The position numbers were made by a program, and so were the translations under genes. The notes below the pieces were generated by a model. That model saw only the letters and a list, made by a program, of their open reading frames with translations, searched no databases and had not been told where the DNA came from. From assembly GCA_020632555.1 (NCBI GenBank), contig JACKFI010000002.1, positions 2,621-66,620 of the forward strand: 64,000 bases of DNA, read 5' to 3'. The DNA comes from Candidatus Omnitrophota bacterium. GTDB lineage: Bacteria > Omnitrophota > Gorgyraeia > Zapsychrales > JANLHA01. Shown piece by piece: positions 18-44,209 of this stretch. How positions within the stretch are numbered: the first letter of the stretch is position 1; every line of letters begins with the position of its first letter.

Positions 18-91
18 TCGGGAAGCCGGGATTCGAACCCGGGACCCCTTGCTCCCAAAGCAAGTGCGCTAGCCAGCTGCGCTACTCCCCG
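18..91 (-). tRNA. tRNA-Pro (anticodon UGG), 74 nt, no encoded CCA
   Basis: The reverse complement folds as a cloverleaf. Acceptor CGGGGAG/CTTCCCG plus discriminator A; D arm GCGC-AGCTGGCTA-GCGC; anticodon arm CTTGC-TTTGGGA-GCAAG (anticodon TGG); variable GGGTC; T arm CCGGG-TTCGAAT-CCCGG. Confidence 0.93.
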
Positions 92-92
92 T
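53..92. repeat. Left att repeat: 40 bp covering the 5' half of tRNA-Pro, identical to 44170..44209
   Basis: The exact string tcccaaagcaagtgcgctagccagctgcgctactccccgt is present at both positions. The flanking bases differ (c52/a44169, a93/t44210). Confidence 0.9.
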
Positions 93-94
93 AA

Positions 95-1186
95 TTATTT
101 AACTAATTGTTTGTCAAATGATTGCAAGACTTCGGATTTTTCTGATGTTTCAGCTTTTGGGCTAAGTGTCCAAAAAGTGTCCACTTTCTTACCCAAAATG
201 TCAACCGCACGCTGTTTATGGCTCGGTGCAAGATGACTATAGCGAAGCGTCATCGTAATATCTTTATGTCCCAATAATTCTCTCACCGTGTTAATGTCAA
301 CCCCAGACATGACCAACTGACTCGCAAAAGTATGTCTTAGATCGTGAAAGTGAAAACTAGTTATACCAGACTTCGCCAAAACTGTCGAGAATGATTTACG
401 GATGTCGTGCAGTGGTTCACCTGCTTCGTTACAAAATACAAAAGGACTCTCGGGGTTCTTCCTGACTCTTATGAGCGCAGTCTTGACTTGTTCATTCATG
501 GGGAGTTCCCTTTTATCGCCGTTCTTCGTGTCCAGCAAAGTAATATTATTGCGTTTGAAATCTATATCATGCCATTTGAGACTAAAAATTTCTCCTCGAC
601 GCATTCCGGTAAATAGGGCCACGACAACGATAGGACGCAACTTTTTATTGCAATGCGCCAAAAGCTTAATAATTTCTTCTTGTTCAAGAAAGCGTAATCG
701 CCCTTGAGCCTCTTTTAAAAACTGCACAGATCGCATGGGATTGACTTGTAATTTTCCCCAAGCAATTGCCTTGTTAAACATTCCCCGCAGTGTTCCCATC
801 TGACGATTGACGGTAGAAGTAGCGACGCCTTCCTTCAACCTCGCTATTTTGAAATCTTCAATGTCCTTGGCTGTAATCGTGTATAGAAATTTACCTCCTA
901 AGAATCGTTTTAAATCGGCAATGTGATAAGAGTCTGTGACCCAACTTTTCTTGTGCTGCTTAGAATGAATATTTAAATATTCTTGAGCAAAATCTTCAAA
1001 TTTAATACGCTCTTTTTTAACGACATCTAAAAACTTGCCCTCAGCAATCCCGACCTTGCGCTTACTTAAAACATTTTCTGCAAGCTTCTTGCTTGTGCCA
1101 ATGGTTTCTCGCCGACGCCTTCCATTTGGAAGTCGATAATCGATATACCAATTGCCGGTCTTTTTGTTTTGAAATACACCCTTCAT
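95..1186 (-). CDS. int: Tyrosine recombinase / phage-type integrase
   Basis: 363-aa ORF. The C-terminal catalytic region reads ...HDLRHTFASQLV...LLGHKDITMTLRYSHL (R..HxxR..Y pattern), with an N-terminal SAM-like/arm-binding region. Its stop codon is 3 nt from the tRNA 5' end. Confidence 0.92.
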   Translation of the reverse strand: MKGVFQNKKTGNWYIDYRLPNGRRRRETIGTSKKLAENVLSKRKVGIAEGKFLDVVKKERIKFEDFAQEYLNIHSKQHKKSWVTDSYHIADLKRFLGGKFLYTITAKDIEDFKIARLKEGVATSTVNRQMGTLRGMFNKAIAWGKLQVNPMRSVQFLKEAQGRLRFLEQEEIIKLLAHCNKKLRPIVVVALFTGMRRGEIFSLKWHDIDFKRNNITLLDTKNGDKRELPMNEQVKTALIRVRKNPESPFVFCNEAGEPLHDIRKSFSTVLAKSGITSFHFHDLRHTFASQLVMSGVDINTVRELLGHKDITMTLRYSHLAPSHKQRAVDILGKKVDTFWTLSPKAETSEKSEVLQSFDKQLVK

Positions 1187-1187
1187 G

Positions 1188-1334
1188 CTATTTCTTCACT
1201 TTCGACTTCTGCCATTCTTTCCAACACCATAACAACAGATTGCTGACTGTCCGTCCCTGATCCTCTGCATCTTTCTGAATTTGTTTCTTTTCTTCCTTAG
1301 TTAAACGAACATTGACTTGTTCTTCTCTCGGCAT
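1188..1334 (-). CDS. Small ribbon-helix-helix (CopG/Arc-like) protein, 48 aa (below the ORF-track cutoff)
   Basis: Hand translation gives MPREEQVNVRLTKEEKKQIQKDAEDQGRTVSNLLLWCWKEWQKSKVKK. The V-N-V-R-L-T-KEE...A...G.(T/S)VS..L pattern is typical of RHH proteins. An AGGAG sits 6 nt upstream of the ATG, and the stop is 1 nt before the int ATG, suggesting translational coupling. Confidence 0.6.
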   Translation of the reverse strand: MPREEQVNVRLTKEEKKQIQKDAEDQGRTVSNLLLWCWKEWQKSKVKK

Positions 1335-1345
1335 CGCACGCTCCT

Positions 1346-1373
1346 ATTGTATATCAATGCTATACATTGTCAA
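1346..1373 (-). promoter_or_regulatory. Sigma70-like promoter for RHH-int, with an inverted repeat in the spacer
   Basis: The minus strand reads TTGACA-16 nt-TACAAT (-35 at 1368..1373, -10 at 1346..1351), ending 11 nt upstream of the RHH ATG. An inverted repeat TGTATA-N7-TATACA overlaps the -10 hexamer and the spacer. Confidence 0.55.
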
Positions 1374-1414
1374 TCAATCTCTTTACAGCCGGACGGCTAA
1401 TTGTAGCAATATCA

Positions 1415-1594
1415 TTATATGGATTCAACAGAGTTTTCGGCTATCCACGCATCAATTTTTCGCAAGTCAAATTTGACAAGTCGGCCAATACGGACAAACG
1501 GGATCTTCCGATAGCAAACCCAAACGGAAACAGTGCCTTCCTTGAGGCCAAGGTACTGAGCGAGTTCTTTTTTATTTAAGAAGCGTCTTTCCAT
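1415..1594 (-). CDS. AlpA/excisionase-family HTH DNA-binding protein, 59 aa (below the ORF-track cutoff)
   Basis: Hand translation gives MERRFLNKKELAQYLGLKEGTVSVWVCYRKIPFVRIGRLVKFDLRKIDAWIAENSVESI. The pattern L..KE.A.YLG....T...W......IP..R.G....F....ID.W is the excisionase/HTH_17 signature. Confidence 0.7.
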   Translation of the reverse strand: MERRFLNKKELAQYLGLKEGTVSVWVCYRKIPFVRIGRLVKFDLRKIDAWIAENSVESI

Positions 1595-1667
1595 TAAATC
1601 CCAGTTTGCCTTTCTCGGCTCTGTTGATTAACTTCCTACAGCCACTCCACAAACCTATAAGATAAAT

Positions 1668-1973
1668 CTAAACTTTTGAAATTCTTCCCCCAAAAATCAT
1701 TAATACATCTAATAATTTTTGCGACATTAAGCCCTTCCCCACTAAAATCTCAGCAGCCAATCGTTGCTTACGATTATCTAATTTTCTAAAAGCAGCGTTT
1801 GTCTTTACTTCAAGCTTGCAGAATCGAACATGCTCATGTCCCGCATCGATCCCTTTATCCCGAAGCTCCTTAACACGTTTCATTGTCTTGATCATTTCGG
1901 TATAGAGCTCGACCGCCTCTGTAATATCATCACTTTGATTAATTCCCGCCGCTGATATTATGTCCATAATCAC
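1668..1973 (-). CDS. Hypothetical protein (101 aa)
   Basis: ORF co-directional with the island module. I recognise no motif. Confidence 0.4.
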   Translation of the reverse strand: MIMDIISAAGINQSDDITEAVELYTEMIKTMKRVKELRDKGIDAGHEHVRFCKLEVKTNAAFRKLDNRKQRLAAEILVGKGLMSQKLLDVLMIFGGRISKV

Positions 1974-1994
1974 TTAATCTATCGGCAACAAAAG

Positions 1995-2240
1995 CTACTA
2001 CAAAATCATTATTCCGACAGCACACCTACAACATAAACCAAGAAATTTAAAGAACTTACGGGAAATGTAGGACTATCGGAGATAAATTCGTAAAATATTC
2101 TTCCCAGCGGTGTCATTTTATGAATCATAAATTTTTAGAAATTAATTCTTCTCGTAGACTTTCATAAATTACTCCTACAATCCTACAAATTTCATAAACT
2201 TAATACTTCAAGTCACTTGCGATGTCGGAGCAATGTCGGA
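1995..2240. repeat. Iteron-like repeat array, a candidate replication origin
   Basis: CCTACAA-type heptamers at 1997, 2025, 2174 and 2182 (the last two tandem as TCCTACAATCCTACAA) and inverted at 2067..2073. TTTCATAAA flanks the tandem pair at 2160 and 2190. ATGTCGGA-N3-ATGTCGGA lies at 2222..2240. The array sits directly downstream of the primase-helicase gene. Confidence 0.45.
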
Positions 2241-2242
2241 AT

Positions 2243-4750
2243 TCAACTTTCGGTAGGAGCGCTATCCCCTACAATGTCTCCCACTAAGTCTCTTATAAAA
2301 CCTGGGCAAGCATCAATGGAAAAAACCACACAACTACAGTTAACCTTTTTAAGACGGTGATCTACGCTAACGCCAACAAAACCAGGCTCATCTTTTAAAT
2401 AATTTCTTATAGCCGCCTCCTTAAATGGCGCTTCTCGATTACGACTCTGGTATTCCTTAGCATAAAGGTTGTACAATCCATGGAAGTAAAGATAAATCTT
2501 CCCCTCTTTTACATCCCAATAGCTCTCCATTTTAGCTGACTCATTAAAGGCCAATGCCTGGATGTCCTTAAAAAACATAGCCACTGCATTCTCAGACTCT
2601 TGCTCGGCCTTGACCACGAGCAACCCCTCCTTAAACATTTTGGCAAAATCAGTATTCTCTCCAAATAGCGTGAAGGCTCCTGCCGATGCTACAGCCATAT
2701 TCGTCGCTAAACGATCATCGCCGGTAAGTTTTGCGATAGCTTCCTTATCTTCTACAAGCTGGCTCAGAAATGTTTCACAATATTGCTTACGGTTTCTTAA
2801 TATTTGATAAGCAAAAGCTGATAGTTGATCACGCTGCTTAACAAACCAATCAAAATTATTAACACGTCGGTTCTTTTCTGATACTTGCACCACCACACAA
2901 CGAGTCAAGAGAGCATTGTCACTAGGAGTTTCTTCACCGGCAATAATTAATGTCCCTCGAACCTTACCCTCGCGTATACCAAATTCCTGACGCATCCCTT
3001 TTCCTGCTGATTGGCGGTTGTACGCATTTCGCAAAAACCCATTCTTGGATGTGACCTTATCAATATTGCGGTACTCATCAATAAAAAACGGCAATGAACT
3101 GTAATAACTCAGGTACCTCTGAATCGCAACTGCGGTCGTATCGGCCGCTTGTTTACCAGCATTTTCCATCCCGAAAGAATTCATTATCCATTCCGCCACC
3201 GTTGATTTTCCCGATCCCCTTCGCCCGGTAATAAATAAGAAAGGAAAGCATCCATACTTTTTAAATACTTCATCCATAAATAAAACTCCGCATGCCCAAC
3301 CTAAACATATGGTGGCCACAAAATCTCCAATACTTTCAGCGAATTTAGCTCTTAAAAGTCCGAAATCGCATTTATTCATATTAAGGTAAGGAATACCCTC
3401 AGCGATTACGCTTTTGCCTGAAGAAATACTTAAAGGGACCGGTTTATAACCACAATTTTTTATCCAAAAAATACCCTTTTCATCATGCCGTAATTCACCT
3501 TGCTCTGAAAACACTACATTGCCGAAAACCCAGAATTTACCATCGGGAAGCCAGCCAACACAATCGGGTTCAATGATGTGTCGGCCATCATCTTCCAAGA
3601 ATAGGCTCTGCCAGATAATTTTAAGATCCTCTATGCTCCCAAGCCAAGTGTAATTGCCCTTATTCATTACGAAATTAGCAAAGGCGTCATTCTTGACCAT
3701 GGGTTCACTGGGAAGTGGAAAACTATGGGAGTGCTTGCCAAACTGATCAACGATCACAATTTCGCGGATAACACCTTCCATGGTTTCATGGCGGGCAATA
3801 ATTTTCAATGTAAAATCAGAAATGGTCTCCTGCCATTCCTGCTTTCCTTGTTTGCGGCTGGCGACGTATTTTCCAAATTCAACGGTAATGTGTGTGCGGT
3901 GATATTTCTTGGCTTGTTTGCGATTGATGATGTTTTGGACTTCTTGCGGGAGATCTTGAACAAAGGCTTTCGGATTTTTTGATTCAGAAATGACTTGTTT
4001 AATCTCCCCTGAGGTCTTGCCTTGTGCCAATGCACCGTCAAGATCTATTTTACCGTTTACACGCCAGCTATCAGGCAATCGACCGATTCGCGTATCGATA
4101 CCTTCCGTATTAAGATTTTTTGCCAAAATGAAAGAAAAATATTCCGTGTCATAACGCTTAAAAGGGTCCTCTTTATAATTAGGAAAAGCAGGATCGTCTT
4201 TAATCTCATTGTCAAACAATATACAGATCTGCTTAATCCCAGCAGCCTGTATGAACTTAACTAAGTTCTTAAAATGAGTGTCGACGAAAGATGATATCCC
4301 TGGAACGCCGATAGTCTTGATTCCCCAGACATGTCCGGCGACGGCTTTAAATTCTGACTCTGTGAGTATTGCTCCTGGAGTTGGGTCGTTAAAAACTTTC
4401 TCATGGTAAATTTGTATTGGGATTTTGAGTCCCATTTTGTGAGGACGTAGAAAGTATGCCTTATTCTCTTTGTCTAGATACGGAATAATTATGCGATCGT
4501 CCGATAGCTGAGATGAAATTATAATTTTGTCAAAGCCTTCGTACTTATGAAAAACCCCTGATACCAGGAGATTATCTTCGCTGAAGTTTGATAACAGTTC
4601 GTTCTCAAGAGTAAGCAAATACTTCCCCCCAGAAAAGAAACGATGAGATTTTATTACCTCCTCAGAAAATCCACGCTTTGACTTTAGTTCTTGTAGATGC
4701 TCAGAGCTCAATTCGCCTCGTGAAGTTATAAATTCATAAATTTCATTCAT
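2243..4750 (-). CDS. Bifunctional DNA primase-helicase (TOPRIM domain plus P-loop NTPase), P4-alpha/D5-like
   Basis: 835 aa. The N-terminal third carries TOPRIM-like acidic motifs (ILTESEFKA...GVPG...ICILFDNEIKDD). The centre carries Walker A (ITGRRGSGKST) and Walker B-like (PFFIDEY) motifs. It overlaps the upstream ORF by ATGA. Confidence 0.8.
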   Translation of the reverse strand: MNEIYEFITSRGELSSEHLQELKSKRGFSEEVIKSHRFFSGGKYLLTLENELLSNFSEDNLLVSGVFHKYEGFDKIIISSQLSDDRIIIPYLDKENKAYFLRPHKMGLKIPIQIYHEKVFNDPTPGAILTESEFKAVAGHVWGIKTIGVPGISSFVDTHFKNLVKFIQAAGIKQICILFDNEIKDDPAFPNYKEDPFKRYDTEYFSFILAKNLNTEGIDTRIGRLPDSWRVNGKIDLDGALAQGKTSGEIKQVISESKNPKAFVQDLPQEVQNIINRKQAKKYHRTHITVEFGKYVASRKQGKQEWQETISDFTLKIIARHETMEGVIREIVIVDQFGKHSHSFPLPSEPMVKNDAFANFVMNKGNYTWLGSIEDLKIIWQSLFLEDDGRHIIEPDCVGWLPDGKFWVFGNVVFSEQGELRHDEKGIFWIKNCGYKPVPLSISSGKSVIAEGIPYLNMNKCDFGLLRAKFAESIGDFVATICLGWACGVLFMDEVFKKYGCFPFLFITGRRGSGKSTVAEWIMNSFGMENAGKQAADTTAVAIQRYLSYYSSLPFFIDEYRNIDKVTSKNGFLRNAYNRQSAGKGMRQEFGIREGKVRGTLIIAGEETPSDNALLTRCVVVQVSEKNRRVNNFDWFVKQRDQLSAFAYQILRNRKQYCETFLSQLVEDKEAIAKLTGDDRLATNMAVASAGAFTLFGENTDFAKMFKEGLLVVKAEQESENAVAMFFKDIQALAFNESAKMESYWDVKEGKIYLYFHGLYNLYAKEYQSRNREAPFKEAAIRNYLKDEPGFVGVSVDHRLKKVNCSCVVFSIDACPGFIRDLVGDIVGDSAPTES

Positions 4751-5043
4751 TTTCTACCCTCCCCATATTTGTCTATTAGTTCACTAAGTTTGTTTATGAC
4801 ACTTTTATGAATTTGATCGCCTGTTACTTTGTTAATAGGATAAAAGGTTGATATTTCTTTACCATTTAACAGCTGTTTGCTCGGGTAGACTAATCGAAAG
4901 CCGTCTCCGCTGGGCCGAGAATAAATTGCAATCGAATTTAAAGAAAGTTGATTATTGAAGGTGCAGGATGCAAAAGCTACGAGTCCTTTCGAGCTAGGTT
5001 TGACTGGATAAATAATTATTTCGGATATTACTACTTCAGACAT
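4747..5043 (-). CDS. SpoVG-family nucleic-acid-binding protein
   Basis: 98 aa. The pattern ...KGLVAFASCTFNNQLSLNSIAIY...GFRLVYPSK......EISTFYPINKVTGDQIHKSVINKL parallels SpoVG (..AIASIT.D..FVVHDIRVI...G.FVAMPSK....G....IAHPIN...R..I..AV). A strong SD (AGGAGG) precedes it. Confidence 0.55.
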   Translation of the reverse strand: MSEVVISEIIIYPVKPSSKGLVAFASCTFNNQLSLNSIAIYSRPSGDGFRLVYPSKQLLNGKEISTFYPINKVTGDQIHKSVINKLSELIDKYGEGRK

Positions 5044-5055
5044 TTTTTACCTCCT

Positions 5056-5092
5056 AAAATAGAAAAACCTAACGCGAATTGGTTGCGTTAGG
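5056..5092 (-). terminator. Rho-independent terminator after ORF 5159..5812
   Basis: Perfect 8-bp stem CCTAACGC/GCGTTAGG (5068..5092) with a 9-nt loop, followed on the minus strand by TTTTTCTATTTT. Confidence 0.7.
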
Positions 5093-5158
5093 CTTATTAA
5101 ACCATGCTTCTAAAAGCATGTCGTTGCAGTCAAGAAAAATACTTTTTCATGAAGAAAA

Positions 5159-5812
5159 TTATTTCTTTGTGAAAGGCTTCAGCCACCTCCTTATAGCTGC
5201 ATCGCTAAACTTTAATTTGTCTGCTTTCGCCTTATCAGAATCGTTTGGATAACGTTTTGCGACCTCGATATCTAGGATCTTTAATAAGGGCCCCATTGGC
5301 AGAGGGGTCTTCTTTTCCATTCCCTGAAAACTCTTTATGACAATCTGTTTTAACTCTTCTTTCTCTGCAGGGACGCTTTTAAATTTGCCCCGGCGCTCCT
5401 CAATAAGGCCGTATTTTCGCAGAACATCCTTTGCAAGTTGGAACTGATCCTTTTCAATTTGAAAAATTCCTTTAAGTAATACAGCATCTATAGGGATCTC
5501 AAACATGCCCTCCGGGTAAACAAATTCGCCGGGGGTCTCTCTAGCATGTGCTATTTTCTCGTTATAATGTTTAAGGAACTCGGGAGGGAAGCAATCTCTC
5601 ATGAACTTGCCTTGCCAATAAACAATAAAATCAAAGACGTTTTCTCGACCCACATAATAAATAGACGGGGCAATCATCAAAAACGGCACCACACCACTTT
5701 TAAAGATTACGACAGGATCTTCATAATTAGGAATACTGGCAAAAACCAGACTACCATATTTATTTGCATACTTTTTAAACTCATTCTGTATAACTTCGTT
5801 GATTTTCGACAC
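5159..5812 (-). CDS. Hypothetical protein (217 aa, GTG start)
   Basis: Long ORF with GAGGA 5 nt upstream of the GTG. No recognisable motif. Confidence 0.5.
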   Translation of the reverse strand: MSKINEVIQNEFKKYANKYGSLVFASIPNYEDPVVIFKSGVVPFLMIAPSIYYVGRENVFDFIVYWQGKFMRDCFPPEFLKHYNEKIAHARETPGEFVYPEGMFEIPIDAVLLKGIFQIEKDQFQLAKDVLRKYGLIEERRGKFKSVPAEKEELKQIVIKSFQGMEKKTPLPMGPLLKILDIEVAKRYPNDSDKAKADKLKFSDAAIRRWLKPFTKK

Positions 5813-6141
5813 ATCTTCCTCACTTTTTCACTTAACAATATCAACATATTAATATCGACATTAAATCATGGCAAAAAAACAAAGTTGCAGGAAGAAATGC
5901 TTTTTCTTACGAATAGGTTCCCAGCGGAAGTTTAAAACGCAGAATGTGTTTTAGATCACCTGAAGCGAAATAACGAGATTGAAAACGTAATTTGACCCTT
6001 TTAAAGCGCCCAGTTGCCAAAACTACGTGGCCATGAACTATCAGCGGCTTGCTTTGCGGTATTGGCGCGGGTCATTGGGGCTTGCACGGCTACCGCAAAC
6101 CCATGCTCAAAATACTATTTCTTCCCCTAGGCCGCGGTACT

Positions 6142-6696
6142 TCAAACGTCGCCATTCTCAGCGTCAACTTCCAATAAAGGGAATGCTTTTTTCTCATCTA
6201 ACTGTATCGAACGGCGAACCTTTGCCAGCAATTCAGCATGAGCTGTTCGAAGTTCTTCATCGCTCATAGTGGAAAATTCGTTAACAGAAAAACTGGCCAT
6301 GAGCTCCGGCTTACGCTCTGTCTCTGATTGCGCTTGTTGAATAACTGTAACCAACCGACTAGAAAAGGCAAGAAATTCGTTTCGCTGCTTCTGAGTCTCA
6401 AGTGGATTTTTCTCAATTGCCTTTAAAATTCTCCCGCGAACTTTTTCCAGATCATCGATCCTGATCCTTTTATTTGCAATAGGGACATCGCTAATCCTGC
6501 TCAAATAAGCCGCCCGAAACTTATCTATAAACGGCTTGTTGATCTTTGCATCGCAGGTTGACCGGATGGATTCGTGGTGCAGAGAAATACCAAAATCGAC
6601 TTTTAATTGTCGCTGGATGTCCGAATAACGATACCCCTCGCCATACATGCGAAGAGCCATCATTCTTTGATCATGTGTTAGTTTTGGTTCAGCCAT
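6142..6696 (-). CDS. HTH-containing protein, possibly small-terminase/DUF2280-like
   Basis: 184 aa. The N-terminus LTHDQRMMALRMYGEGYRYSDIQRQLKVDFGISLHHESIRS resembles the HTH of phage small-terminase-like proteins, and the C-terminal half is helical. The family call is weak. Confidence 0.35.
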   Translation of the reverse strand: MAEPKLTHDQRMMALRMYGEGYRYSDIQRQLKVDFGISLHHESIRSTCDAKINKPFIDKFRAAYLSRISDVPIANKRIRIDDLEKVRGRILKAIEKNPLETQKQRNEFLAFSSRLVTVIQQAQSETERKPELMASFSVNEFSTMSDEELRTAHAELLAKVRRSIQLDEKKAFPLLEVDAENGDV

Positions 6697-6861
6697 CGAT
6701 TGATTATACCAAAAGCATCGGAAGATTTTAAGAAGAATTCTTTAGTATTATTTCAGGAAAAACGTCTTTAGATCACGGCTGTAAGAAAACGGGGGCTTTC
6801 AGCGGCATTAAGCAGTTTAATAATGAACTCGGCCTCGCTGAACTTGCCTAACAAACAAAAG

Positions 6862-7317
6862 CTACGGGGTGGTTTTGATATATATCGGATCAAGAATTGA
6901 CCCGCGACGTTGATTTTCCATTTCGCGACGCCTGCGATTTATATCTTCAATTTTTCTTTGATACTCATCATTAATTTCCTTTTGTCTAGCTTGAAACGCT
7001 TGCATTCTTTGTTGCTGAATTTGCTGCTGTTGTACCTGTATTTCATAAGTGTACCGATTCATGGCCATCTGGGCATCTTGATTAGCTCCGCAATATGGAC
7101 ACACAACTTCTTTACTGCTTTGAAGAACTTCATCAGTTACAACAAAGCCACGCAGGCAGACAGAACATAATGCACCATGTTGAGTCGAAATTTGTTGCGG
7201 TTCTGGTGGATTTTTCCACCAAGCTCCTTTAGGGTTCCCCCACACAACCTGATTCCACTGAGTCGTTGTACACCCCGCCAAACAGACCAAACTCATAATA
7301 AGAGCAATGTTACGCAT
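6862..7317 (-). CDS. Lipoprotein with a zinc-ribbon-like CxxC...CxxC motif and a Q/R-rich coiled coil
   Basis: Start moved to MRNIALIMSLVCLAGC, which has a lipobox LAGC and GGAGG 5 nt upstream. CSVC...CPYC follows, then QVQQQQIQQQRMQAFQARQKE. Confidence 0.6.
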   Translation of the reverse strand: MRNIALIMSLVCLAGCTTTQWNQVVWGNPKGAWWKNPPEPQQISTQHGALCSVCLRGFVVTDEVLQSSKEVVCPYCGANQDAQMAMNRYTYEIQVQQQQIQQQRMQAFQARQKEINDEYQRKIEDINRRRREMENQRRGSILDPIYIKTTP

Positions 7318-7384
7318 AATGCCTCCATATTCCATTTTGGCATATTACATAATGGAATATATCATTTTTGACATAGAAAGGCAA

Positions 7385-7618
7385 ATGCCAATGTCTGCCA
7401 AAAAGACAATTTATTCACAAGAGCATAAACAACTTATTGAACGGCTGATCGAAGCGCGGGAGGCTGCAAAAATACGCCAAGAAGATGTTGCGAAAAAGCT
7501 TGGAAGGACCCAATCCTACATTTCAAAGATTGAAGCCGGCCAACGCCGGGTTGATCTCGTACAACTGCAAGAACTCGCCAAAATTTATAAGAAACCTTTG
7601 AAGTTTTTCATTTCTTAG
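7385..7618 (+). CDS. XRE-family HTH transcriptional regulator
   Basis: The sequence ...IRQEDVAKKLGRTQSYISKIEAGQRRVDLVQLQELAKIY is a classic Cro/C1 HTH. Start set at the ATG at 7385, preceded by GAAAGG. It is the only non-IS plus-strand gene in the island. Confidence 0.8.
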   Translation: MPMSAKKTIYSQEHKQLIERLIEAREAAKIRQEDVAKKLGRTQSYISKIEAGQRRVDLVQLQELAKIYKKPLKFFIS

Positions 7619-36437: not shown

Positions 36438-36446
36438 TAATTCGTT

Positions 36447-36566: not shown

Positions 36567-36792
36567 GTTACGAATCCTAAAAATTACAAACGCACTACAA
36601 AAAGTAACAAAATTGTAATGAATTTGTAATCTAAACATTGGGGGAGTTTTCTGACCTTCATATTATGAGAGAACAAGGTTCAAATTTTATACATTGCAAT
36701 TAAATAATTTACACTAACCCATCAAAACGATGTGCCAAATCTGTGTCATGTTAGAGTTGTTAGCAAAGCTACGTCAGAACCAACACAGGATA

Positions 36793-37227
36793 TCAATCGA
36801 CTTTTTGAAGGCTTAGCCAACCTTCAATTTTTCTCCTAATCTCCTCACGAACGGCTCTGGTCTTGGCAATTTTTTCTTCCCAAGTCCCTTCAAACTTTGA
36901 CGGATCGGTAAATCCCCAATGAAGTCTCTTGGCAATCCCGGGAAATATTGGGCAACGTTCTGCGCTCGTTTCATCGCAGACCGTAATCACATAACTGTAT
37001 AATTTACCCTGTTTAAGAAGATCCATGACAGCTTGGGTCTTCTTTCCGGAAATATCAATCCCCTCCTCTTTCAACACTTCGACCACAACCGGATTTAACT
37101 TGCCCGGTTCAATGCCAGCGCTTTCGACCTCAAAACGATCCCCAGCCAACTTTCGCAATAGCTCTTCGGCCATTTGGCTTCTGGCAGAGTTGTGAATACA
37201 CACAAATAATACTTTGTCTTTTGACAT
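36793..37227 (-). CDS. arsC: Arsenate reductase, LMW-PTP (thioredoxin-coupled) type
   Basis: 144 aa. [16 protein letters not shown] is the P-loop CX5R, with downstream Cys residues ([10 protein letters not shown]). Confidence 0.88.
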
Positions 37228-37300
37228 TTTGACCCTCTCCTTTTACAGTTTATACCGCGCTAAAAATAAGGGGAGTAACTTATGATAACATTGCTTACCC

Positions 37301-37858
37301 CTACTTGATTGCTGAACACCAACTATCAATTTTTTCCTTTATGGCGTCACGCATGACTCTGGTTTGCTGCAATCTCTCTTCTTTACTGCCAACAAATGCT
37401 GATGGATCAGCGAAATTCCATCTGATGCGTTCGCATTCGCCGGAGAAAGCGGGACATTGTTCAGCGCTTGCTTCATCACAAACAGTAATGACAAAATCAA
37501 AAGATATGTCTATTTTGACAAGATCAAAAACGTTTTGTGTCTTTTTATTAGATATATCAATCCCTACCTCTTGCATCACTTCAACCGCCAAAGGGTTTAA
37601 TAACCCGGGTTCTAGTCCTGCACTTTGTGCATAAAAGGAATCTCCATGCAGATAATTTAACAAGGCTTCGGCTATTTGACTACGTGCTGAATTGTGGACG
37701 CACACAAATAGAACCCTCTTTTTTATTTTGCCACCAAAAAATGAATACACCTTTCTCCAAAAACCCGGCCTCTTTGCCGGTAAATGGATGAGATCTTTCG
37801 TGGCGAAGAAATTCTTCCAGAAGCTATCTAACTCATTATCCATAGCACTTCCTATCAA
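37301..37858 (-). CDS. arsC: Second LMW-PTP-type arsenate reductase, with an N-terminal extension of about 45 aa
   Basis: 185 aa. VLFVCVHNSARSQIAE and CDEASAEQCP. The N-terminal extension has no recognisable motif. Confidence 0.8.
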   Translation of the reverse strand: MIGSAMDNELDSFWKNFFATKDLIHLPAKRPGFWRKVYSFFGGKIKKRVLFVCVHNSARSQIAEALLNYLHGDSFYAQSAGLEPGLLNPLAVEVMQEVGIDISNKKTQNVFDLVKIDISFDFVITVCDEASAEQCPAFSGECERIRWNFADPSAFVGSKEERLQQTRVMRDAIKEKIDSWCSAIK

Positions 37859-37984
37859 ATCTCAACAATTGAAGTCCAGAAACTTTTCTCTTCAAACAGT
37901 ACTTATTCTAAATTCTTTGTTTTTTCAAAATTCTCCCAAAACTTCTTACTTTTCTCTTCTTCCGTTTCCATAATCACTAAACAC

Positions 37985-39073
37985 TCAGGAGCAACAAGAT
38001 TTCTCAATTTCAGCCTTTTTTTGAAAAAATCGTGCAACATGAACCAATAACAACATGACCGGCACTTCAATCAATGGCCCGATGACTGTCGCAAATGCTT
38101 GCAAAGAATTGATCCCAAAGATCGCTACCGCGACCGCGATCGCCAGCTCAAAATCATTACTCGCCGCTGTAAATGACACCGCTGTTGCTTCAGCATGATT
38201 TGACTGTAATTTTCTTGAAAACCAATACGCTACAAACCACATGACAATAAAATAAATCGTCAAAGGCACTGCGATCCGAACGACGTCCAATGGCAAGCGA
38301 ACGATATACTCACCTTTGAGCGAAAACATGACAAAGATCGTGAAAAGAAGTGCGACCAGCGTGATCGGGCTAATACGTGGAATGTAAACTTTGTCGAACC
38401 ACTCCTGCCCCTTCATTTTGATCAACGCAAAACGACTGACCACACCCGCAAAGAACGGAATTCCGAGATAGATCAAAACAGTCTTGGCCGACTCCAGCAT
38501 CGACACCTGAATATTCACCCCCTTAACCAAGCCAAAGAAATTTAGCGCAAATGTAATAAACACATAAATATAGACTGCATAAAGAAGCACTTGAAAAACA
38601 GCATTAAAAGCCACCAGGCCGGCAGCCAGCTCTCTGTCTCCGTCAGATAGATCATTCCAAACAATCACCATAGCAATACATCGCGCAAGGCCGACAAGAA
38701 TAACGCCGATCATATACTCTGGATAATTGTGCAAGAAAATCACAGCCAAAATAAACATCACAATTGGCCCAACGACCCAGTTTTGCAGTAGTGACAATCC
38801 TAAAAGTTTTTTGTTTTGAAAAACTTTCCCGATCTCTTCATATTTCACTTTTGCCAATGGCGGGTACATCATCAGGATCAATCCAATCGCAATGGGTATA
38901 TTCGTCGTGCCCGCCTGAAATTTATTCCAGAATACAGCGATGCTAGGGATAAAATATCCAACGCCCACTCCAATCGCCATAGCTAAAAGAATCCATAATG
39001 TCAAATAACGATCAAGAAACGACAACTGTTTAGTTGGCGGCCATGGATTAAGTGCCTCGACATTAATTGCCAT
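37985..39073 (-). CDS. acr3: ACR3-family arsenite efflux permease
   Basis: Start set at [20 protein letters not shown] and 10 TM segments are typical of Acr3/ArsB(ACR3). Confidence 0.88.
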
Positions 39074-39077
39074 ATTT

Positions 39078-40838
39078 CTATTTCCTTCCATTAATTGAAT
39101 CTTCCGAAATATTGACCATCCAAGGCAAAACAACCGTTCGTTTAGAAAGCTTATTTGCCGTTTCGTTGATAAACGTCAACTCATGAAAACCCTTGGCACA
39201 TATCAAAGGGTCTTTCGATCCGGAAACAGCAAAATTCCGGTTAATGACCCATCCAAATGGATTAATACCGGCTCTTTGTAAATCAACTTGCAATGCCTCG
39301 GCTTCATGCGTCGGAGTTGCTTCTGCCAAAGAAATGATTACAAGCTTTGTAAACTTGGGATCGCGAATGCGAGGCAATAATTCCTTAACATCATCTGACA
39401 TATTATCCGTCGATTTAGCAACCTGCCTGTGATAAGACTCGGTCGCGTCCAATAGCAGAAGTGTGTGTCCCGTCGGCGCTGTGTCGAGAACAATAAATTG
39501 ATTTTCACCTTTTGCAACGGTTTGCGCAAAAGCCTTAAACACCGCAATCTCTTCAATACAGGGAGAACGCATTTCTTCTTCAAGAAGTTCCATATCTTCT
39601 CTCGATAATTTCTCCCTGTTTTCCTTCAAGACACTTTCAACATATTTCCGTGTTTCGATCTTAGGGTCAATCTTATCAATAGAAAGATTGGCAATTTCTG
39701 TCTTAATGACTTTAGCAATATGCGCGGCGGGGTCTGTTGTCGATAATAAGACCTTGTGGCCGCGACTAGCAAGCTCGACTGTTATCATAGCCGCAACCGT
39801 CGTCTTACCCACTCCGCCTTTTCCCATAGTCATAATGACCCCGGAACCATCGTTCTCGAGGCTCGACATAAATTCTGACCATTTACAGGTATTCTTTAGC
39901 GCTTCGGAAAGCTCCTCTTTCAATTTGGCTATAACTTTTAACTCGGGAGCATGAGTTTTATCATCCAGCATATTTCGTAAAGCCTCAATTCCGACTACTC
40001 CCTGCGACCTAAAATTTATAATTGTCTTATCGAGATGCTTTATTTCATCAGGCACATTTTGCATTGCTAACGCCGATGTTAAAGCAAAGGCTTTTGCGAT
40101 TTCATCCTCTGAGGAAGTTTTAAAAACTCCATTAATCACAAGCCTCTGATTATTTAATCCCAATAAACCAAGCTCCCCACTTGCCCTCGCCGCCTCATCC
40201 AGACTCATTTTCTCCGGTCTTGATACTAAGACAAGAGTCGTCTGCTTGGGATTCTTAAGCTCATCTACAACCGCTTGATAAAGATGCTGCTGTTCTTTTA
40301 GGCCGGATAAAGGGCCCAGACAAGAGCTGCTAGCTTTATTGGATGCAATAAAATCACTCCATGCCGACGGAAGATTCAAAAGCCGAAGCGTGTGTCCGGT
40401 AGGCGCCGTATCTAAAATAAGGTGGTCATATTCGATACTAGCTTCTTTAAGACCTATGAATTTTGAGAACTCATTAAACCCAGCAATCTCGACGGTACAA
40501 GCCCCCGAAAGCTGTTCCTCCATCTGCTTGATTGATTCATCGGGTAAAACTCCTTTGTATGGATCAATCATGCGCCTTCGATATTCCTCAGCCGCCTTAA
40601 CGGGATTAATGTTCATGGCATGAAGGTTGGCAACATTAGCAACTGCAGTTGGCGTCGATGACAACTTTGTCTCTAAAACTTCATCAAGATTTGACGCGGG
40701 ATCTGTGCTGATCAGTAAAACTTTTTTGCCTGAATCGGCAAGCCCAACGGCAACGGCACACGATACGGAGGTCTTTCCAACTCCGCCTTTTCCGGTAAAG
40801 AATAGGAAACGGGTTGCTTCCTCCATTAAAGTTTTCAT
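39078..40838 (-). CDS. arsA: Arsenite-stimulated ATPase ArsA (two homologous halves)
   Basis: Two P-loops ([11 protein letters not shown]; [11 protein letters not shown]) and two DTAPTGHTL signal-transduction motifs. The start overlaps the arsD stop (TGATG). Confidence 0.92.
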
Positions 40839-41194
40839 CAGCAACACCCGTCTCCCCCGCAGCAACTGCTCTTCTTGTTAGGCTGCGCTTTTTGATCGAG
40901 CTTGAATGTTTTCAGAATTTCTGCCGCGGATGGAATTTCCCCTGACCACTTGAGCTCATCATCAACAAAAATAAACGGCAAAGCGCTTTGTCCTTTTTCA
41001 GCCAGGAGCTTCTTAACATTAGGGTTTGCAACAAAAGCTTGCGGCTCCTGAGACATATTAAAACGCCGAACAACTACACCAGAGCTCGAGAGCGTCTTTA
41101 AAACGCTGGCGAACTCAACCAGCTTTTTATCAACCGTTGTTCCGCATACTCCGCTTGAACAACACATTGGCGGATCATAGATTTCAATTTTCAT
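40838..41194 (-). CDS. arsD: Arsenic metallochaperone/repressor ArsD
   Basis: MKIEIYDPPMCCSSGVCG is the canonical ArsD N-terminus. The C-terminus has a CCGGDGCC tail. Confidence 0.9.
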   Translation of the reverse strand: MKIEIYDPPMCCSSGVCGTTVDKKLVEFASVLKTLSSSGVVVRRFNMSQEPQAFVANPNVKKLLAEKGQSALPFIFVDDELKWSGEIPSAAEILKTFKLDQKAQPNKKSSCCGGDGCC

Positions 41195-41210
41195 ATCTGA
41201 CTCCTAATTT

Positions 41211-41999
41211 TTAAGGTTTCACCGCATGGACTTTGATGCTTGCAATTGAATTTTCTACCTCTTTTATTTTCGTATCGATAACCATCGCGTCAACAGGATA
41301 ACCGCTCTGGCTAACAACCCTAATATCCTTAAAACCTGCCTCTTCAATACAGTGAAGATAGGCATCTTTCATTTCAGCACCGGCAAGACATCCCACGTAA
41401 GCCTCAACCGAATTTTTGACAGCTTCCGGCAAGTTTTTTATCAGAACAAGATCCGAAACCATCAACCGACCTTTGGGCTTGAGAACCCGGAATGCTTCCC
41501 TAAATACCTTGTTCTTCTCTGGAGATAGATTAATCACGCAATTAGAAATGATCACATCAACAGAATTGTCTACTACTGGAATTGACTCTATTTCGCCATG
41601 CCGAAATTCGACATTGCTATAACCTCCCTTTCGAGCATTATTCTTCGCCCGGTCAATCATCTCCTGAGTCATATCAACTCCGATAACATGTCCAGTCTTA
41701 CCAACTTTCTTGGCCGCAAGAAATACATCAAATCCAGCGCCGCTTCCCAGATCGAGAACCACATCGCCCTCCTGTAAAGAGGCAATAGCAACCGGATTAC
41801 CGCAGCCAAGTCCCAAAATGGCACCATCAGGCACTGTGGAAATATCTTCCTCACTGTAGCCAACGGTTTTGCTGATATTATGAGCGGTAGAGGAAGGTAA
41901 ACAGCACCCGCCGGATGAACAACAAGAAATTCCCTGTTGGGCGACTTTAGCATAACCATCCCTAACCATCTTCCTAATATTTTTTGATTTGCCTTCCAT
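41211..41999 (-). CDS. arsM: Arsenite S-adenosylmethionine methyltransferase ArsM
   Basis: Start set at MEGKSKNIRKMVRDGYAKVA, with AAGGTG upstream. Cys pairs (CCSSGGCC), the SAM motif VLDLGSGAGFD, and NCVINLS. The longer track ORF (to 42092) runs into IS sequence. Confidence 0.88.
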   Translation of the reverse strand: MEGKSKNIRKMVRDGYAKVAQQGISCCSSGGCCLPSSTAHNISKTVGYSEEDISTVPDGAILGLGCGNPVAIASLQEGDVVLDLGSGAGFDVFLAAKKVGKTGHVIGVDMTQEMIDRAKNNARKGGYSNVEFRHGEIESIPVVDNSVDVIISNCVINLSPEKNKVFREAFRVLKPKGRLMVSDLVLIKNLPEAVKNSVEAYVGCLAGAEMKDAYLHCIEEAGFKDIRVVSQSGYPVDAMVIDTKIKEVENSIASIKVHAVKP

Positions 42000-42103
42000 A
42001 AATACACCTTGTATTATTTCACAACCTGGACCTTCCCCCCAAAAACTGTACCACTTGCAATTAGAGTTGGGTCGTGATAAAACCAACCGCAAGGAGGTAC
42101 AAG

Positions 42104-42370
42104 ATGAAAGGGAAGCGATTTTCAGCCGAGCAAATTATCAACGTTCTCAAAGAATCCGATGCCGGGGTAAAGCCTGCGGATCTGTGCCGCAAGTACGGCA
42201 TCAGCGAGGCCACGTATTATCACTGGAAGGCCAAGTACGGCAATATGACCGTCAGCGATGCCAGGCGGCTTAAAGAACTCGAGCAAGAAAACAGCCGCCT
42301 AAAGAAGCTGGTAGCTGATCAGGCTCTTGACATCCAGATGCTCAAAGAGGTCTGCTCAAAAAACTTCTAA
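42104..42370 (+). CDS. IS3-family transposase OrfA
   Basis: MKGKRFSAEQIINVLKE.DAG....LCRKYGISEATYYHWKAKYG, then a leucine zipper. AAGGAGG lies upstream. Confidence 0.88.
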   Translation: MKGKRFSAEQIINVLKESDAGVKPADLCRKYGISEATYYHWKAKYGNMTVSDARRLKELEQENSRLKKLVADQALDIQMLKEVCSKNF

Positions 42371-42390
42371 CGCCCGAAGCCAGGCGCAAA

Positions 42391-43221
42391 GTGGTCAGAC
42401 ATTTAATGGCTCTCTTCGGGCGGAGCCAGAGACGAATCTGTTCATTGATAGGCATTCAAAGATCGACGTTGCATTATCGACCCAAACTGAAAAATGATAA
42501 CCAGCTCCGTCAACGCCTGCGGGAATTGGCGCAGAAGCATCGTCGCAGGGGATGCCCGCATTTGCACCGCATCCTGCGTCGCGAAAAACTGGTCATCAAC
42601 CATAAACGCACCGAGCGTATTTACCTGGAGGAAAACCTGTCCATTAGACGGAAAAAGCGTAAGAAGACGGCTTCCCAGTTGCGCATTCAAATCCCTGATG
42701 CGGCGCGTCCCAATCAGCAATGGGCGATGGATTTTATGTCGGACGCGTTGTTTAACGGCCGTAAAATCCGGCTGTTGACCTTAATCGACGAATACACCCG
42801 TGAATGCCTAGCCATTGAAGTTGATACCTCGATCAACGGTGTCCGGGTGACCGGCATCTTAAGCCGAGTGGCTATGATGCGTGGTCTGCCGGAGATTATC
42901 AAAGTCGACAACGGGCCCGAGTTTATCGGCAAGGCTTTGGATGCCTGGGCGTATCAGCGGCAGATTCATCTTCAATTTTCCAGACCTGGTAAACCCGTTG
43001 ACAATAGATTCATCGAAAGTTTCAACGGCCGATTTCGGGAAGAATGTCTCAACGACAATTGGTTCATGAGTTTGCAGGATGCTCGGGATATCGTCGAAAC
43101 GTGGCGTCTGGATTACAACACGGCTAGGCCGCATGGCTCTTTGAATGATCTGACACCCGAAGAATTTGTTAACAAAGAACAGAAAAAACTCCAACTCAAC
43201 TTGGTACAGTCAATGGGGTAA
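42391..43221 (+). CDS. IS3-family transposase OrfB (DDE/rve core)
   Basis: In the -1 frame relative to OrfA. Motifs: WAMDFMSD, KVDNGPEF, GKPVDNRFIESFNGRFREECL. Confidence 0.88.
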   Translation: MVRHLMALFGRSQRRICSLIGIQRSTLHYRPKLKNDNQLRQRLRELAQKHRRRGCPHLHRILRREKLVINHKRTERIYLEENLSIRRKKRKKTASQLRIQIPDAARPNQQWAMDFMSDALFNGRKIRLLTLIDEYTRECLAIEVDTSINGVRVTGILSRVAMMRGLPEIIKVDNGPEFIGKALDAWAYQRQIHLQFSRPGKPVDNRFIESFNGRFREECLNDNWFMSLQDARDIVETWRLDYNTARPHGSLNDLTPEEFVNKEQKKLQLNLVQSMG

Positions 43222-43288
43222 GGTCCACCTAACCAAAGATCATCCCGCTGATCATCGCAATGATGATAACAAGACGTGAATAAAAGCA

Positions 43289-43627
43289 TTACTTACTACA
43301 TAACTTAGTTCGCTCAGCCTTTTTCAACCGCTCCAAATCTGCTTTAATAACTTTGTCATTTTTAAGAAATGACTTAACACTCTTAAGAATTACACCTGCC
43401 TTAGAGTTCTTTATTAAAAAATAATTAGTCCAAAACCCATCCTGCTCATCCGCAATCAATCCAGTCTCCTTTATCCGCTTTAAATGCCGCGAAATGCTTG
43501 GCTGAGTCACCTGCAATACAAAAGCAAGTTCACAGACGCACATCTTCCGCTGCAAGAGGAGATTCAAAATCCTCAATCGGTTCTTATCAGCAAATATTTT
43601 AAAAAGTTTTTCTGTTGTTGTTAGCAT
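43289..43627 (-). CDS. arsR: ArsR-family arsenic-responsive repressor
   Basis: 112 aa. FKIFADKNRLRILNLL...MCVCELAFVLQVTQPSISRHL carries the CVC As(III) site in the HTH. Confidence 0.88.
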   Translation of the reverse strand: MLTTTEKLFKIFADKNRLRILNLLLQRKMCVCELAFVLQVTQPSISRHLKRIKETGLIADEQDGFWTNYFLIKNSKAGVILKSVKSFLKNDKVIKADLERLKKAERTKLCSK

Positions 43628-43630
43628 ATC

Positions 43631-43679
43631 TATATAACCATTCTGTTATATACATTAACAGAGTCAGTCTAATTGTCAA
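43631..43679 (-). promoter_or_regulatory. Proximal ars promoter with a palindromic operator
   Basis: The minus strand reads TTGACA (43674..43679), a 16-nt spacer, then TAATGT (43652..43657). It is immediately followed by the perfect palindrome TATATAAC-N6-GTTATATA (43631..43652), ending 3 nt before the arsR ATG. Confidence 0.6.
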
Positions 43680-43721
43680 GTTTCAATTTCTCAAGATGCA
43701 TCGACAAATCTCTAGCCAAGA

Positions 43722-43774
43722 TATATAGAAGGACGGGGTAGGGGTGTCAAAGGGGGATTTCGGTTTTGGGGATC
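43722..43774 (-). promoter_or_regulatory. Promoter-like module B
   Basis: The minus strand reads GATCCCCAAAACCGAAATCCCCCTTTGACACCCCT, with -35 TTGACA (43745..43750), a 17-nt spacer and TATATA (43722..43727). It is about 85 percent identical to module C over roughly 55 nt. Confidence 0.5.
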
Positions 43775-43973
43775 AGGAATTCTTATCGGCACGAACCCCT
43801 CGTGTCTTAGAGTGCCCTTTAATCGCTCCACGCGTCCCCTTGTGGCAACAAAGTTGCAACTTCCCTCCTTTTCTTTTGGTGGGAACAGGCAAAAGATTCT
43901 AAAAAACCTCAAATTTTCGCTGGGGGGGTTTTCGAAAAAGATCCTATCACTGCATCAAAATTTCTATTGGGGA

Positions 43974-44048
43974 TATATAAAAGCCGGGGGCAGGGGTGTC
44001 TAAGGGGGGATTTCGGTTTTGGGGATCGCCGTGTCCAAAAAGTGTCCA
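43974..44048 (-). promoter_or_regulatory. Promoter-like module C plus a GTGTCCA heptamer pair
   Basis: The minus strand reads TGGACAC-TTTT-TGGACAC (44031..44048), then GATCCCCAAAACCGAAATCCCCCCTTAGACACCCCT, with TAGACA (43997..44002), a 17-nt spacer and TATATA (43974..43979). Confidence 0.45.
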
Positions 44049-44169
44049 TCTTTGGTTAAAACTGATGACACTTGGTAAAACATGATAAAAATAAAAATGG
44101 CCCTATCCTCGTCGGGAGATCCTCAACTTTGAATCATTTCAAACGGTTACAAAATACGCCTTAATCGCA

Positions 44170-44209
44170 TCCCAAAGCAAGTGCGCTAGCCAGCTGCGCT
44201 ACTCCCCGT
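44170..44209. repeat. Right att repeat: an orphan 5' half of tRNA-Pro
   Basis: Identical to 53..92. On the minus strand it reads CGGGGAGTAGCGCAGCTGGCTAGCGCACTTGCTTTGGGA and then diverges, so there is no anticodon 3' stem or T arm. Confidence 0.9.

Follow-up and report, generated by a model that had tools for sequence, protein, structure and literature searches.

Evidence for a 44-kb island integrated through the 5′ half of a tRNA-Pro gene in Candidatus Omnitrophota

The tRNA-Pro locus and its direct repeat

The window analysed here is a stretch of 64,000 nucleotides from a Candidatus Omnitrophota bacterium (GenBank assembly GCA_020632555.1, contig JACKFI010000002.1, positions 2,621 to 66,620), the first 44 kb of which appear to hold a genomic island inserted at a tRNA-Pro gene. 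This gene, a tRNA-Pro(UGG), lies at 18–91 on the minus strand with its position +1 at window position 91; recognised by ARAGORN as tRNA-Pro(TGG) and by the Rfam family RF00005 (65.7 bits), it is the only intact tRNA in the window. Directly next to it a tyrosine integrase of 363 amino acids (Int; 95–1186, minus strand; PF00589, E = 1e-36) reads toward the tRNA, and its stop codon is 3 nt from the tRNA +1. The 40-mer TCCCAAAGCAAGTGCGCTAGCCAGCTGCGCTACTCCCCGT has exactly two copies in the window, at 53–92 and 44170–44209, both on the plus strand and without a single mismatch, and it was absent from all 100 sequences of a shuffle control. When the window was compared with itself by BLAST the identity covered exactly 40 bp, so that the repeat is not part of a larger segmental duplication, a possibility that an earlier note on this DNA had itself put forward as a way in which an island reading might fail.

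Read in the sense of the tRNA, the repeat consists of A followed by CGGGGAG TA GCGC AGCTGGCTA GCGC A CTTGC TTTGGGA, that is, one nucleotide upstream of the gene plus tRNA nt 1–39, and it ends on the last base of the anticodon loop. Since the tRNA is encoded on the minus strand, the repeat corresponds to its 5′ half and not to its 3′ half. The copy at 53–92 forms the core of the left attachment site (attL) and lies within the intact gene, of which nt 1–39 belong to the island-side core and nt 40–74 to host DNA. The copy at 44170–44209, the core of attR, is an orphaned 5′ half: T arm and 3′ acceptor strand are missing from it, and the native upstream region of the tRNA is still attached to it. 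As it is the 5′ half that is repeated, the island sits upstream of the tRNA and separates it from its own promoter region. The size of the element is 44,117 bp, made up of window positions 93–44169 and one 40-bp core.

The earlier note, which was based on the letters of the sequence, had reported the perfect repeat with one copy in the tRNA and one orphan, as well as the integrase 3 nt from the tRNA, and exact searches, self-BLAST, ARAGORN and Rfam agree with it on these points. Its interpretation as a tRNA-Pro island stands as far as integration is concerned, but the unusual 5′-half orientation had escaped it. The GC profiling that it proposed across the two boundaries revealed no sharp step at either of them and is uninformative for placing the island ends.

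Unoccupied sites and a second host

An exact-pattern scan with the tRNA-Pro returned eight loci, all from uncultured metagenome-assembled genomes (MAGs) labelled Candidatus Omnitrophota/Omnitrophus or “uncultured Planctomycetales”. At two of them, L008 and L009, there is no integrase and none of the 44 kb, and these therefore represent the unoccupied tRNA-Pro sites for which the earlier note had suggested a search. Here the tRNA-Pro is found only 179 nt (L008) or 109 nt (L009) from the start of an AsmA-like homologue, with ptsP downstream of the tRNA. The corresponding AsmA-like gene of the window (48323–51478, plus strand; matched by tblastn to L008 and L009) is the first flanking gene whose order is conserved with these relatives, and the next six genes of L009, among them rdgB and rph, follow in the same order as in the window at 51.6–56.1 kb, with 69–88 % amino-acid identity. 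The expectation that everything to the right of position 44209 would be housekeeping DNA is thus correct from 48323 onwards but not for 44210–48322. This interval is lineage-specific and contains a gene for a fused major facilitator superfamily (MFS) transporter/spermidine synthase of 798 amino acids (44427–46823), between attR and the conserved flank, and an ISNCY insertion sequence (IS), both of which are missing from L008 and L009. A scan of genome contigs with the MFS/spermidine-synthase protein found no relatives.

An integrase protein identical to that of the window is encoded on contig JAYRHV010000362 of another Omnitrophota MAG (L001/L006), where it is again followed by tRNA-Pro and ptsP. 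Positions 1–3754 of L001, which comprise part of the primase gene, the small genes, int and tRNA nt 1–49, match the window with 0 mismatches, while the next 43 nt, covering the T-stem and the downstream flank, contain 10 mismatches, including compensatory changes in the T-stem. Identical island DNA gives way to diverged host DNA between tRNA nt 39 and nt 50, as would be expected if the same element had recombined at the anticodon region in two hosts. The comparison is evidence, at the level of the DNA, of a very recent transfer of the element between Omnitrophota hosts. In L010, a third MAG, this position is occupied by a diverged int with 92.6 % DNA identity over 394 nt.

The integrase module and the predicted attP

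All the catalytic residues of a tyrosine recombinase (R196, K221, H281, R284, H307 and Y316) are present in Int, as judged from the invariant columns of an alignment and a residue check, and the gene lies within the element beside the attachment site. The closest solved structures are the integrases of P2 and HP1. Directly upstream of int, a ribbon-helix-helix (RHH) protein of 48 amino acids resembling NikA/CopG (1188–1334, minus strand; PF21983, E = 1.6e-8) is encoded; the gene was also called in L001 and L002. It is preceded by a gene for a 59-amino-acid protein with an HTH_17 domain of the Xis/AlpA type (1415–1594, minus strand; PF12728, E = 1.4e-9), which is probably the excisionase. In L172, L174, L176 and L178 a 60-amino-acid HTH_17 gene is likewise located at most two genes upstream of int. 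The recombination module thus reads HTH_17, RHH, int and core. Further upstream, a primase/helicase-like replication protein of 835 amino acids (2243–4750, minus strand) matches DNA primase families of PHROG (E = 6e-14) and is without a Pfam match.

The 18-mer GTGTCCAAAAAGTGTCCA (sense TGGACACTTTTTGGACAC) occurs in the window only at 166–183, inside the int codons for VDTFWTL, and at 44031–44048, where an exact copy lies 121 nt from the attR core. In the reconstructed attP the two are direct repeats, one ending 74 nt before the tRNA +1 and the other beginning 121 nt past the core. Related elements display the same geometry: L172 and L178 carry TGGACAnTTTnTGGACA at 74–75 nt and at 121–122 nt, and L092 carries GTGACAcagtgGTGACA at 73 nt and about 120 nt, so that the spacing is conserved in four of four elements. 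The 18-nt repeats are interpreted as putative arm-type binding sites of Int, in the P arm (166–183) and the P′ arm (44031–44048), respectively. Within int, the same bases at 166–183 would therefore serve both as VDTFWTL codons and, apparently, as an element of the recombination site.

According to this model attP would comprise, in order, the P-arm site within the 3′ coding region of int, about 74 nt, the core, about 121 nt and the P′-arm site, the core being a copy of tRNA nt −1 to 39 that begins 3 nt after the int stop codon. Strand exchange would most likely take place within the 7-bp anticodon loop, because this is the sole segment common to the repeats of the 5′ type and of the 3′ type described below. 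On integration, the tRNA 5′-half copy of the element would rebuild an intact tRNA at attL, and the host's own 5′ half would be left orphaned at attR together with its native promoter region. Excision is predicted to require Int and the adjacent HTH_17 Xis-like protein, after which the primase-like protein could allow the element to replicate.

The non-coding right end of the island also contains a 66-nt direct repeat (43706–43771 and 43958–44023, 73 % identity). Its second copy adjoins the P′ arm-type site, and a similar motif is found at 10950–10973. The repeat may bind an accessory factor, such as an Xis- or IHF-like protein.

A clade of integrases associated with tRNA 5′ halves

Homologues of the integrase number in the thousands, and most of those with a source name are labelled Omnitrophota/Omnitrophica. 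For a survey of the family, 80 metagenomic and 80 viral loci were collected via an alignment of 38 homologues, tRNAs were called and a neighbour-joining tree was built. In the clade that includes the window integrase (about 41–68 % identity to it), all 13 loci that could be placed have the 5′ arrangement with the tRNA on the int strand; the tRNA starts anywhere from 50 nt inside the int open reading frame (ORF) to 30 nt past the int stop. The targets are tRNA-Pro, Lys, Ala, Leu, Arg and Thr, and one of the 13 loci is a free attP. Outside the clade, 39 loci have the conventional and 10 the 5′ arrangement (Fisher p = 1.4e-7). Four more close homologues on long contigs (66–73 % identity to the window integrase) also have a co-oriented tRNA, whose start ranges from 10 nt within the int ORF to 12 nt beyond its stop.

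Complete islands were delimited in two of the relatives. In L172 a perfect 41-nt repeat corresponding to tRNA-Leu(CAA) −2 to 39 bounds an island of 9.6 kb, and in L178 a perfect 41-nt repeat of tRNA-Pro(CGG) −2 to 39 bounds another of 9.6 kb. The L172 island (1411–1532, 11108–11192) parts the tRNA-Leu from a tRNA-Ala that would otherwise lie 6 nt upstream, and the tRNA-Leu is thus cut off from whatever promoter served the pair.

L092 (IMGVR_UViG_3300035659_002352) is a viral contig of 14,874 nt whose terminal overlap of 127 nt indicates a circle of 14.7 kb. Among its products are a major capsid protein, a large terminase, a tape-measure-like protein and a primase. Only tRNA nt 1–37 (anticodon CAT) are present 7 nt past its int; the tRNA sequence breaks off after the anticodon loop, and no full tRNA was found anywhere on the contig. 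Judged from its sequence, L092 corresponds to the free form of attP expected under the model. In addition to the clade integrase, it has genes for a serine recombinase and for a second tyrosine recombinase that looks truncated. Being unusually small for a tailed phage, it may be a satellite.

Conventional members of the same family (L038, L045 and L093) keep the normal orientation and are mirror images of the elements just described. The repeat of L038 corresponds to tRNA-Arg nt 33–77 and that of L045 also starts at nt 33, the first base of the anticodon loop, so that the two mirror types have only the 7-nt loop in common. In L093 and L048 an antisense tRNA 3′ half follows int.

Integration and its alternatives

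The empty sites in relatives, the identical element in a second host, the intact integrase and the matching arm-type sites at both ends support the view that an island has integrated site-specifically into tRNA-Pro here, with attL and attR as its boundaries. We consider it very probable that it represents a 44,117-bp integrative element whose P2/HP1-like Int recombined attP with the tRNA-Pro(UGG) of a Candidatus Omnitrophota host. A number of points weigh against this interpretation. To the left of the tRNA the window extends for only 17 nt, and within the 40 bp the crossover is placed only as at or 5′ of tRNA nt 39. The N-terminal 66 residues of Int had no match in the Pfam scan, so that arm binding is deduced from the DNA repeats only. 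Furthermore, the P-arm repeat overlaps conserved Int codons (VDTFWTL, a C-terminal motif); its conservation could thus be driven by the protein and is on its own no evidence for a function at the DNA level, for which the argument comes from the non-coding P′ copy at a fixed distance. The promoter calls discussed below are consensus matches (9–11 of 12 positions) in a phylum whose promoters are uncharacterised. Finally, the short-read contigs L002 and L003 from the same sample break in the 40-bp core, which means that the integrated joins rest on this assembly.

The latter observation raises the question whether the integrated layout is an assembly artefact, in which case the element would be episomal (attP), the chromosomal attB intact, and the four flanks misjoined across the 40-bp repeat. 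The two short-read (Logan) contigs of SRR12358676 do end or begin inside the core, the element does carry a primase-like replication gene, and the related L092 does exist as a free circle. However, independent contigs of other MAGs (L001 and L010) run continuously from int through the full tRNA into ptsP, L172 and L178 each hold both junctions on a single long contig, and the identity break between island and host in L001 is that expected of true integration. An artefact is therefore quite improbable, and even if it had occurred the element and the att system would be the same. One could also imagine that the island is a fixed and decayed relic that is no longer mobile, its repeat being a fossil left by an old insertion. 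Signs of rearrangement are the two IS3 insertions and the internal relic of the P′ arm, and no conjugation or packaging genes were found on the island, but the core copies are identical in 40 of 40 bp and the arm sites in 18 of 18, the int, Xis-like and RHH ORFs are intact, and there are 0 differences over 3.75 kb between two hosts whose adjacent DNA differs at 10 of 43 positions. Immobility thus appears improbable. Prior expectation alone, about 96 % of the islands in Islander having a 3′ fragment (PMC4383910), would speak for a conventional 3′-half island merely read on the opposite strand. This idea was rejected and deserves practically no credence, because the minus-strand tRNA has its +1 at 91, the repeat covers nt 1–39, and the orphan lacks both the T arm and the 3′ acceptor strand.

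Proposed growth of the island

A sequence homologous to the P′ arm (43994–44055) is found inside the island at 10950–11002, where it contains three variant arm repeats (sense TGGCACA) and abuts the left end of the insertion sequence IS3-A. A further variant arm repeat, GTGCCGGATTTGTGCCA, is located at about 12328–12344. The internal relic, which IS3-A has split or truncated, speaks for a second, related element in the past of the island. Because of this relic, and because related complete islands measure only about 9.6 kb, it is suggested that the 44 kb grew by accretion, that is, by the fusion of related elements together with IS activity. The cargo was probably added to a backbone of about 11 kb that carries int, the primase and defence genes.

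In its most explicit form, the 44 kb would be a fusion of two tandem, related 5′-half elements, one of about 11 kb with int, primase and SIR2/HerA, the other an older metal/arsenic island from which its own int and the middle att site have since disappeared. We regard this as possible, though by no means the likelier course of events; it concerns the history of the region and complements its explanation as an integrated island. In its favour are the relic with its TGGCACA repeats beside IS3-A, the further repeat at about 12328–12344, the small size of the related complete islands and the heterogeneous GC content of the island (38–48 %). On the other hand, a third copy of the tRNA 5′ half, which was sought as a sign of a tandem array, was not found when up to 3 mismatches were allowed, there is no second int, and the P-arm repeat of int exactly matches the distal P′ site at 44031–44048 and not the internal relic. 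By virtue of this match, it is the whole 44 kb that now constitutes the unit defined by the att sites.

Other traces of insertion exist at the opposite end of the tRNA. In L001 (3780–3907), and also in L004, L011 and L007, an insertion of about 128 nt directly follows the tRNA-Pro; its limits are marked by a 17-nt repeat of the tRNA 3′ end, GAATCCCGGCTTCCCGA, and it includes a GC-rich structured segment that begins with GGGATTCGAAGCC. It is missing from L005, L008, L009 and L010, and an Rfam scan of this element in the relatives recognised no family but the tRNA. It may represent a miniature element, or a decayed one, for which the conventional 3′ site of tRNA-Pro served as the target. The 17-nt left flank of the window resembles the start of the version found in L004.

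Predicted transcription of the rebuilt tRNA

If the island separates the tRNA from its promoter region, the rebuilt gene would have to be expressed in another way. A promoter-like sequence, TTGACA-16-TACAAT (11 of 12 consensus positions; 1346–1373, minus strand; a consensus match only), is located upstream of the RHH and int genes. No terminator-like site was found between this sequence and the tRNA, and a promoter scan made no call inside the 3′ end of int; co-transcription of the tRNA with int is thus the simplest reading. The rebuilt tRNA would most plausibly be transcribed from island DNA, together with RHH and int, from the site at 1373–1346. An internal tRNA promoter in the last 40 nt of int was considered and rejected, since the TTGACA present there is too near the tRNA for a normally spaced −10 box.

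On the other side of the island, the native upstream flank contains two tandem units of 51 nt (44213–44314, minus strand), each with a hairpin and a TTAACG-17-GATAAT sequence on the tRNA strand (9 of 12 consensus positions). These units are probably the original promoter region of tRNA-Pro, which would now be aimed into the island. If they are indeed the native tRNA promoters, transcription should cross the orphan half and enter the island, where the genes found run in the same direction as the native tRNA promoter except for the XRE gene and the IS3 transposases. In tRNA sense, each unit opens with TTAACGGGGA, which resembles the tRNA start, and continues with a GC hairpin and the promoter-like GATAAT. 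Degenerate copies resembling the tRNA-Pro 5′ half are also present in L008 and L004, 60–70 nt upstream of the real tRNA. The tandem units and the degenerate upstream copies could be duplicated promoters or scars of earlier 5′-half integrations.

These elements can be joined in a broader proposal, which we think unlikely to hold in full: that a large, mostly Omnitrophota-associated integrase clade uses tRNA 5′ halves without exception, and that integration rewires transcription in both directions. Expression of the host tRNA would then hinge on the promoter of the int operon, which the host would need to stay active, and the element would have captured the strong native tRNA promoter to drive its co-directional genes. 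Moreover, the int mRNA could be trimmed through cleavage by RNase P in a manner dependent on the integration state, because a complete tRNA lies 3 nt after int only when the element is integrated; this would be a counterpart of the sib retroregulation of lambda. The searchable literature yielded no description of such rewiring or of RNase P trimming for bacteria, with the limit that full-text searches for the 5′ half are hampered by the prime sign, which is unsearchable.

Cargo and neighbouring DNA

The backbone of the island, from 93 to about 10.8 kb, encodes Int, the RHH and HTH_17 proteins, the primase/helicase-like protein, a SpoVG-like protein and several unknown proteins, followed by an XRE regulator and a SIR2-HerA pair. 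The XRE-type helix-turn-helix regulator (7307–7618; PF01381, E = 6e-13) is the only plus-strand island gene found besides the IS3 transposases. SIR2-HerA, an anti-phage system (7939–10756, minus strand), was recognised by PADLOC and Pfam, with HerA at 7939–9690 (PADLOC E = 2e-242) and SIR2 at 9704–10756 (E = 2e-114), the two adjacent genes being 13 nt apart.

The cargo of metal and arsenic genes extends from 12.3 to 43.6 kb. A metal-resistance block (12347–35374, minus strand) contains two P-type ATPases, of the Cu type (12347–14629) and of the Zn/Cd type (27366–29684), and two CzcCBA-type resistance-nodulation-division systems, with CzcA/B/C-like genes at 16929–22708 and 30078–35374. An extracytoplasmic function (ECF) sigma factor (24913–25464) and a P-II protein are encoded within the same block, all of these genes being on the minus strand. 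An arsenic cluster follows (36001–42092, minus strand), with ArsR, two proteins of the low-molecular-weight phosphatase family (ArsC-type), ACR3, ArsA, ArsD and ArsM. The island gene nearest to attR encodes another ArsR-family regulator (43289–43627, minus strand; PF01022, E = 4e-17). This cargo is proposed, from its gene content, to confer resistance to heavy metals and arsenic as well as SIR2-HerA phage defence.

Two IS3-family elements lie on the plus strand, IS3-A (orfA/orfB; 10968–12250; NF033516, E = 1.5e-85) and IS3-B (42074–43221), which is without DNA similarity to IS3-A. A composite transposon bounded by the two was rejected, as they gave no blastn match to each other. With Pfam, PADLOC and PHROG matches the gene content announced by the earlier note, namely a replication module, SIR2-HerA, metal resistance, an ars operon and two IS3 elements, could be recognised throughout, and its remark that all island genes but one XRE gene and two IS3 pairs lie on the minus strand holds for the genes found.

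Among the roughly 50 island ORFs scanned there is no relaxase, coupling protein or type IV secretion gene that would characterise an integrative and conjugative element, and only the 48-amino-acid NikA-like RHH protein is present; the relative L178 carries a TraG/VirD4-like gene. Neither capsid, terminase nor any other virion or packaging protein was matched in the island by PHROG or Pfam, as a prophage or satellite would require, and the relative L172 carries a small terminase. Megablast comparisons of the cargo (12300–37200) with plasmids and of the backbone (93–10800) with phages gave no match.

Beyond attR, two ISNCY elements (46881–48306 and 61135–62560) are 99.86 % identical over 1,426 nt and inverted, and constitute the only other long repeat in the window. 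They bracket about 13 kb of housekeeping genes and could be a substrate for inversion. The first copy is flanked by a direct repeat of 15–16 nt, ATTCATCCCCCTAGAA (46866 and 48306), reminiscent of a long target-site duplication.

Relation to known systems

The usual rule is that an island duplicates the tRNA gene's 3′ half, so that the tRNA keeps its promoter (PMC10865867; PMC8371274). Of the 3,919 islands in Islander, 3,760 have a 3′ fragment and 159 a 5′ fragment (Hudson, Lau and Williams 2015, PMC4383910). The element of the window has the defining layout of a tRNA-integrated island, in which an intact tRNA gene (tDNA) and a displaced end-fragment in like orientation bracket the element, and is a member of the known tDNA-integrated tyrosine-integrase islands, within their documented 5′-half minority. 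With the Islander 5′-fragment islands it shares a tyrosine integrase between the intact gene and the fragment in direct orientation, a 5′ fragment upstream of the tDNA and an att site centred on the anticodon. It differs from them in coming from the uncultured phylum Omnitrophota, in belonging to a coherent integrase clade, and in the conserved attP layout, with the core 3–13 nt past the int stop and the arms at about 74 and about 121 nt.

The identity block is bounded by the anticodon loop, as in class I (Islander “A”) sites, but it reaches the 5′ end of the tRNA and not the 3′ end, which is the arrangement by which a class I tRNA keeps its own promoter. Compared with the class I sites of P4, P2 and HP1-like integrases, as far as they are outlined in PMC8371274 (from Williams 2002), the block likewise ends at the edge of the 7-nt anticodon loop, Int appears to be heterobivalent with flanking arm repeats, and the tRNA would be rebuilt on integration. 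Within the same outline, the window element is a mirror image in that it carries tRNA nt 1–39 and not nt 33 to the 3′ end, and what its target loses is the promoter of its own and not its terminator side.

A precedent for the use of the 5′ half is known from archaea. The pTN3-like integrases of Thermococcales have an attB in the tRNA 5′ half (Cossu et al. 2017, PMC5495485; PMC8371274), and the rebuilt tRNA is expressed from the integrase promoter (PMC8371274). The position of attB is thus shared, but the pTN3-like systems are “suicidal” in the SSV manner, with attP inside int, which is split on integration, whereas the int ORF of the window (95–1186) is intact and its stop precedes the core. 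The host of the window is bacterial, and the likeness is drawn from the arrangement and not from the integrase sequence. As regards the cargo, the elements G08 and G62 of Acinetobacter baumannii (PMC6070778) also represent chromosomal heavy-metal resistance islands mobilised by their own integrase, but they differ in host, integrase lineage and insertion site.

Significance

What the present analysis adds to these precedents is a model of attP, an integrase clade with a uniform 5′ orientation and evidence of very recent transfer between hosts. For this clade it also provides a rule of annotation: the island ends can be predicted from the int stop, with the core starting 3–13 nt later, the other end being the same tRNA 5′ half, and TGGACA arm repeats lying at fixed distances. 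In a phylum known only from metagenomes, the window offers a precisely bounded and apparently recently mobile island of resistance and defence genes. The presence of mirror-image att sites, in the tRNA's 5′ half or in its 3′ half, within one integrase family is a natural comparison for the evolution of att sites, and the arrangement allows one to ask what follows for a tRNA gene when an integrated element removes its promoter.

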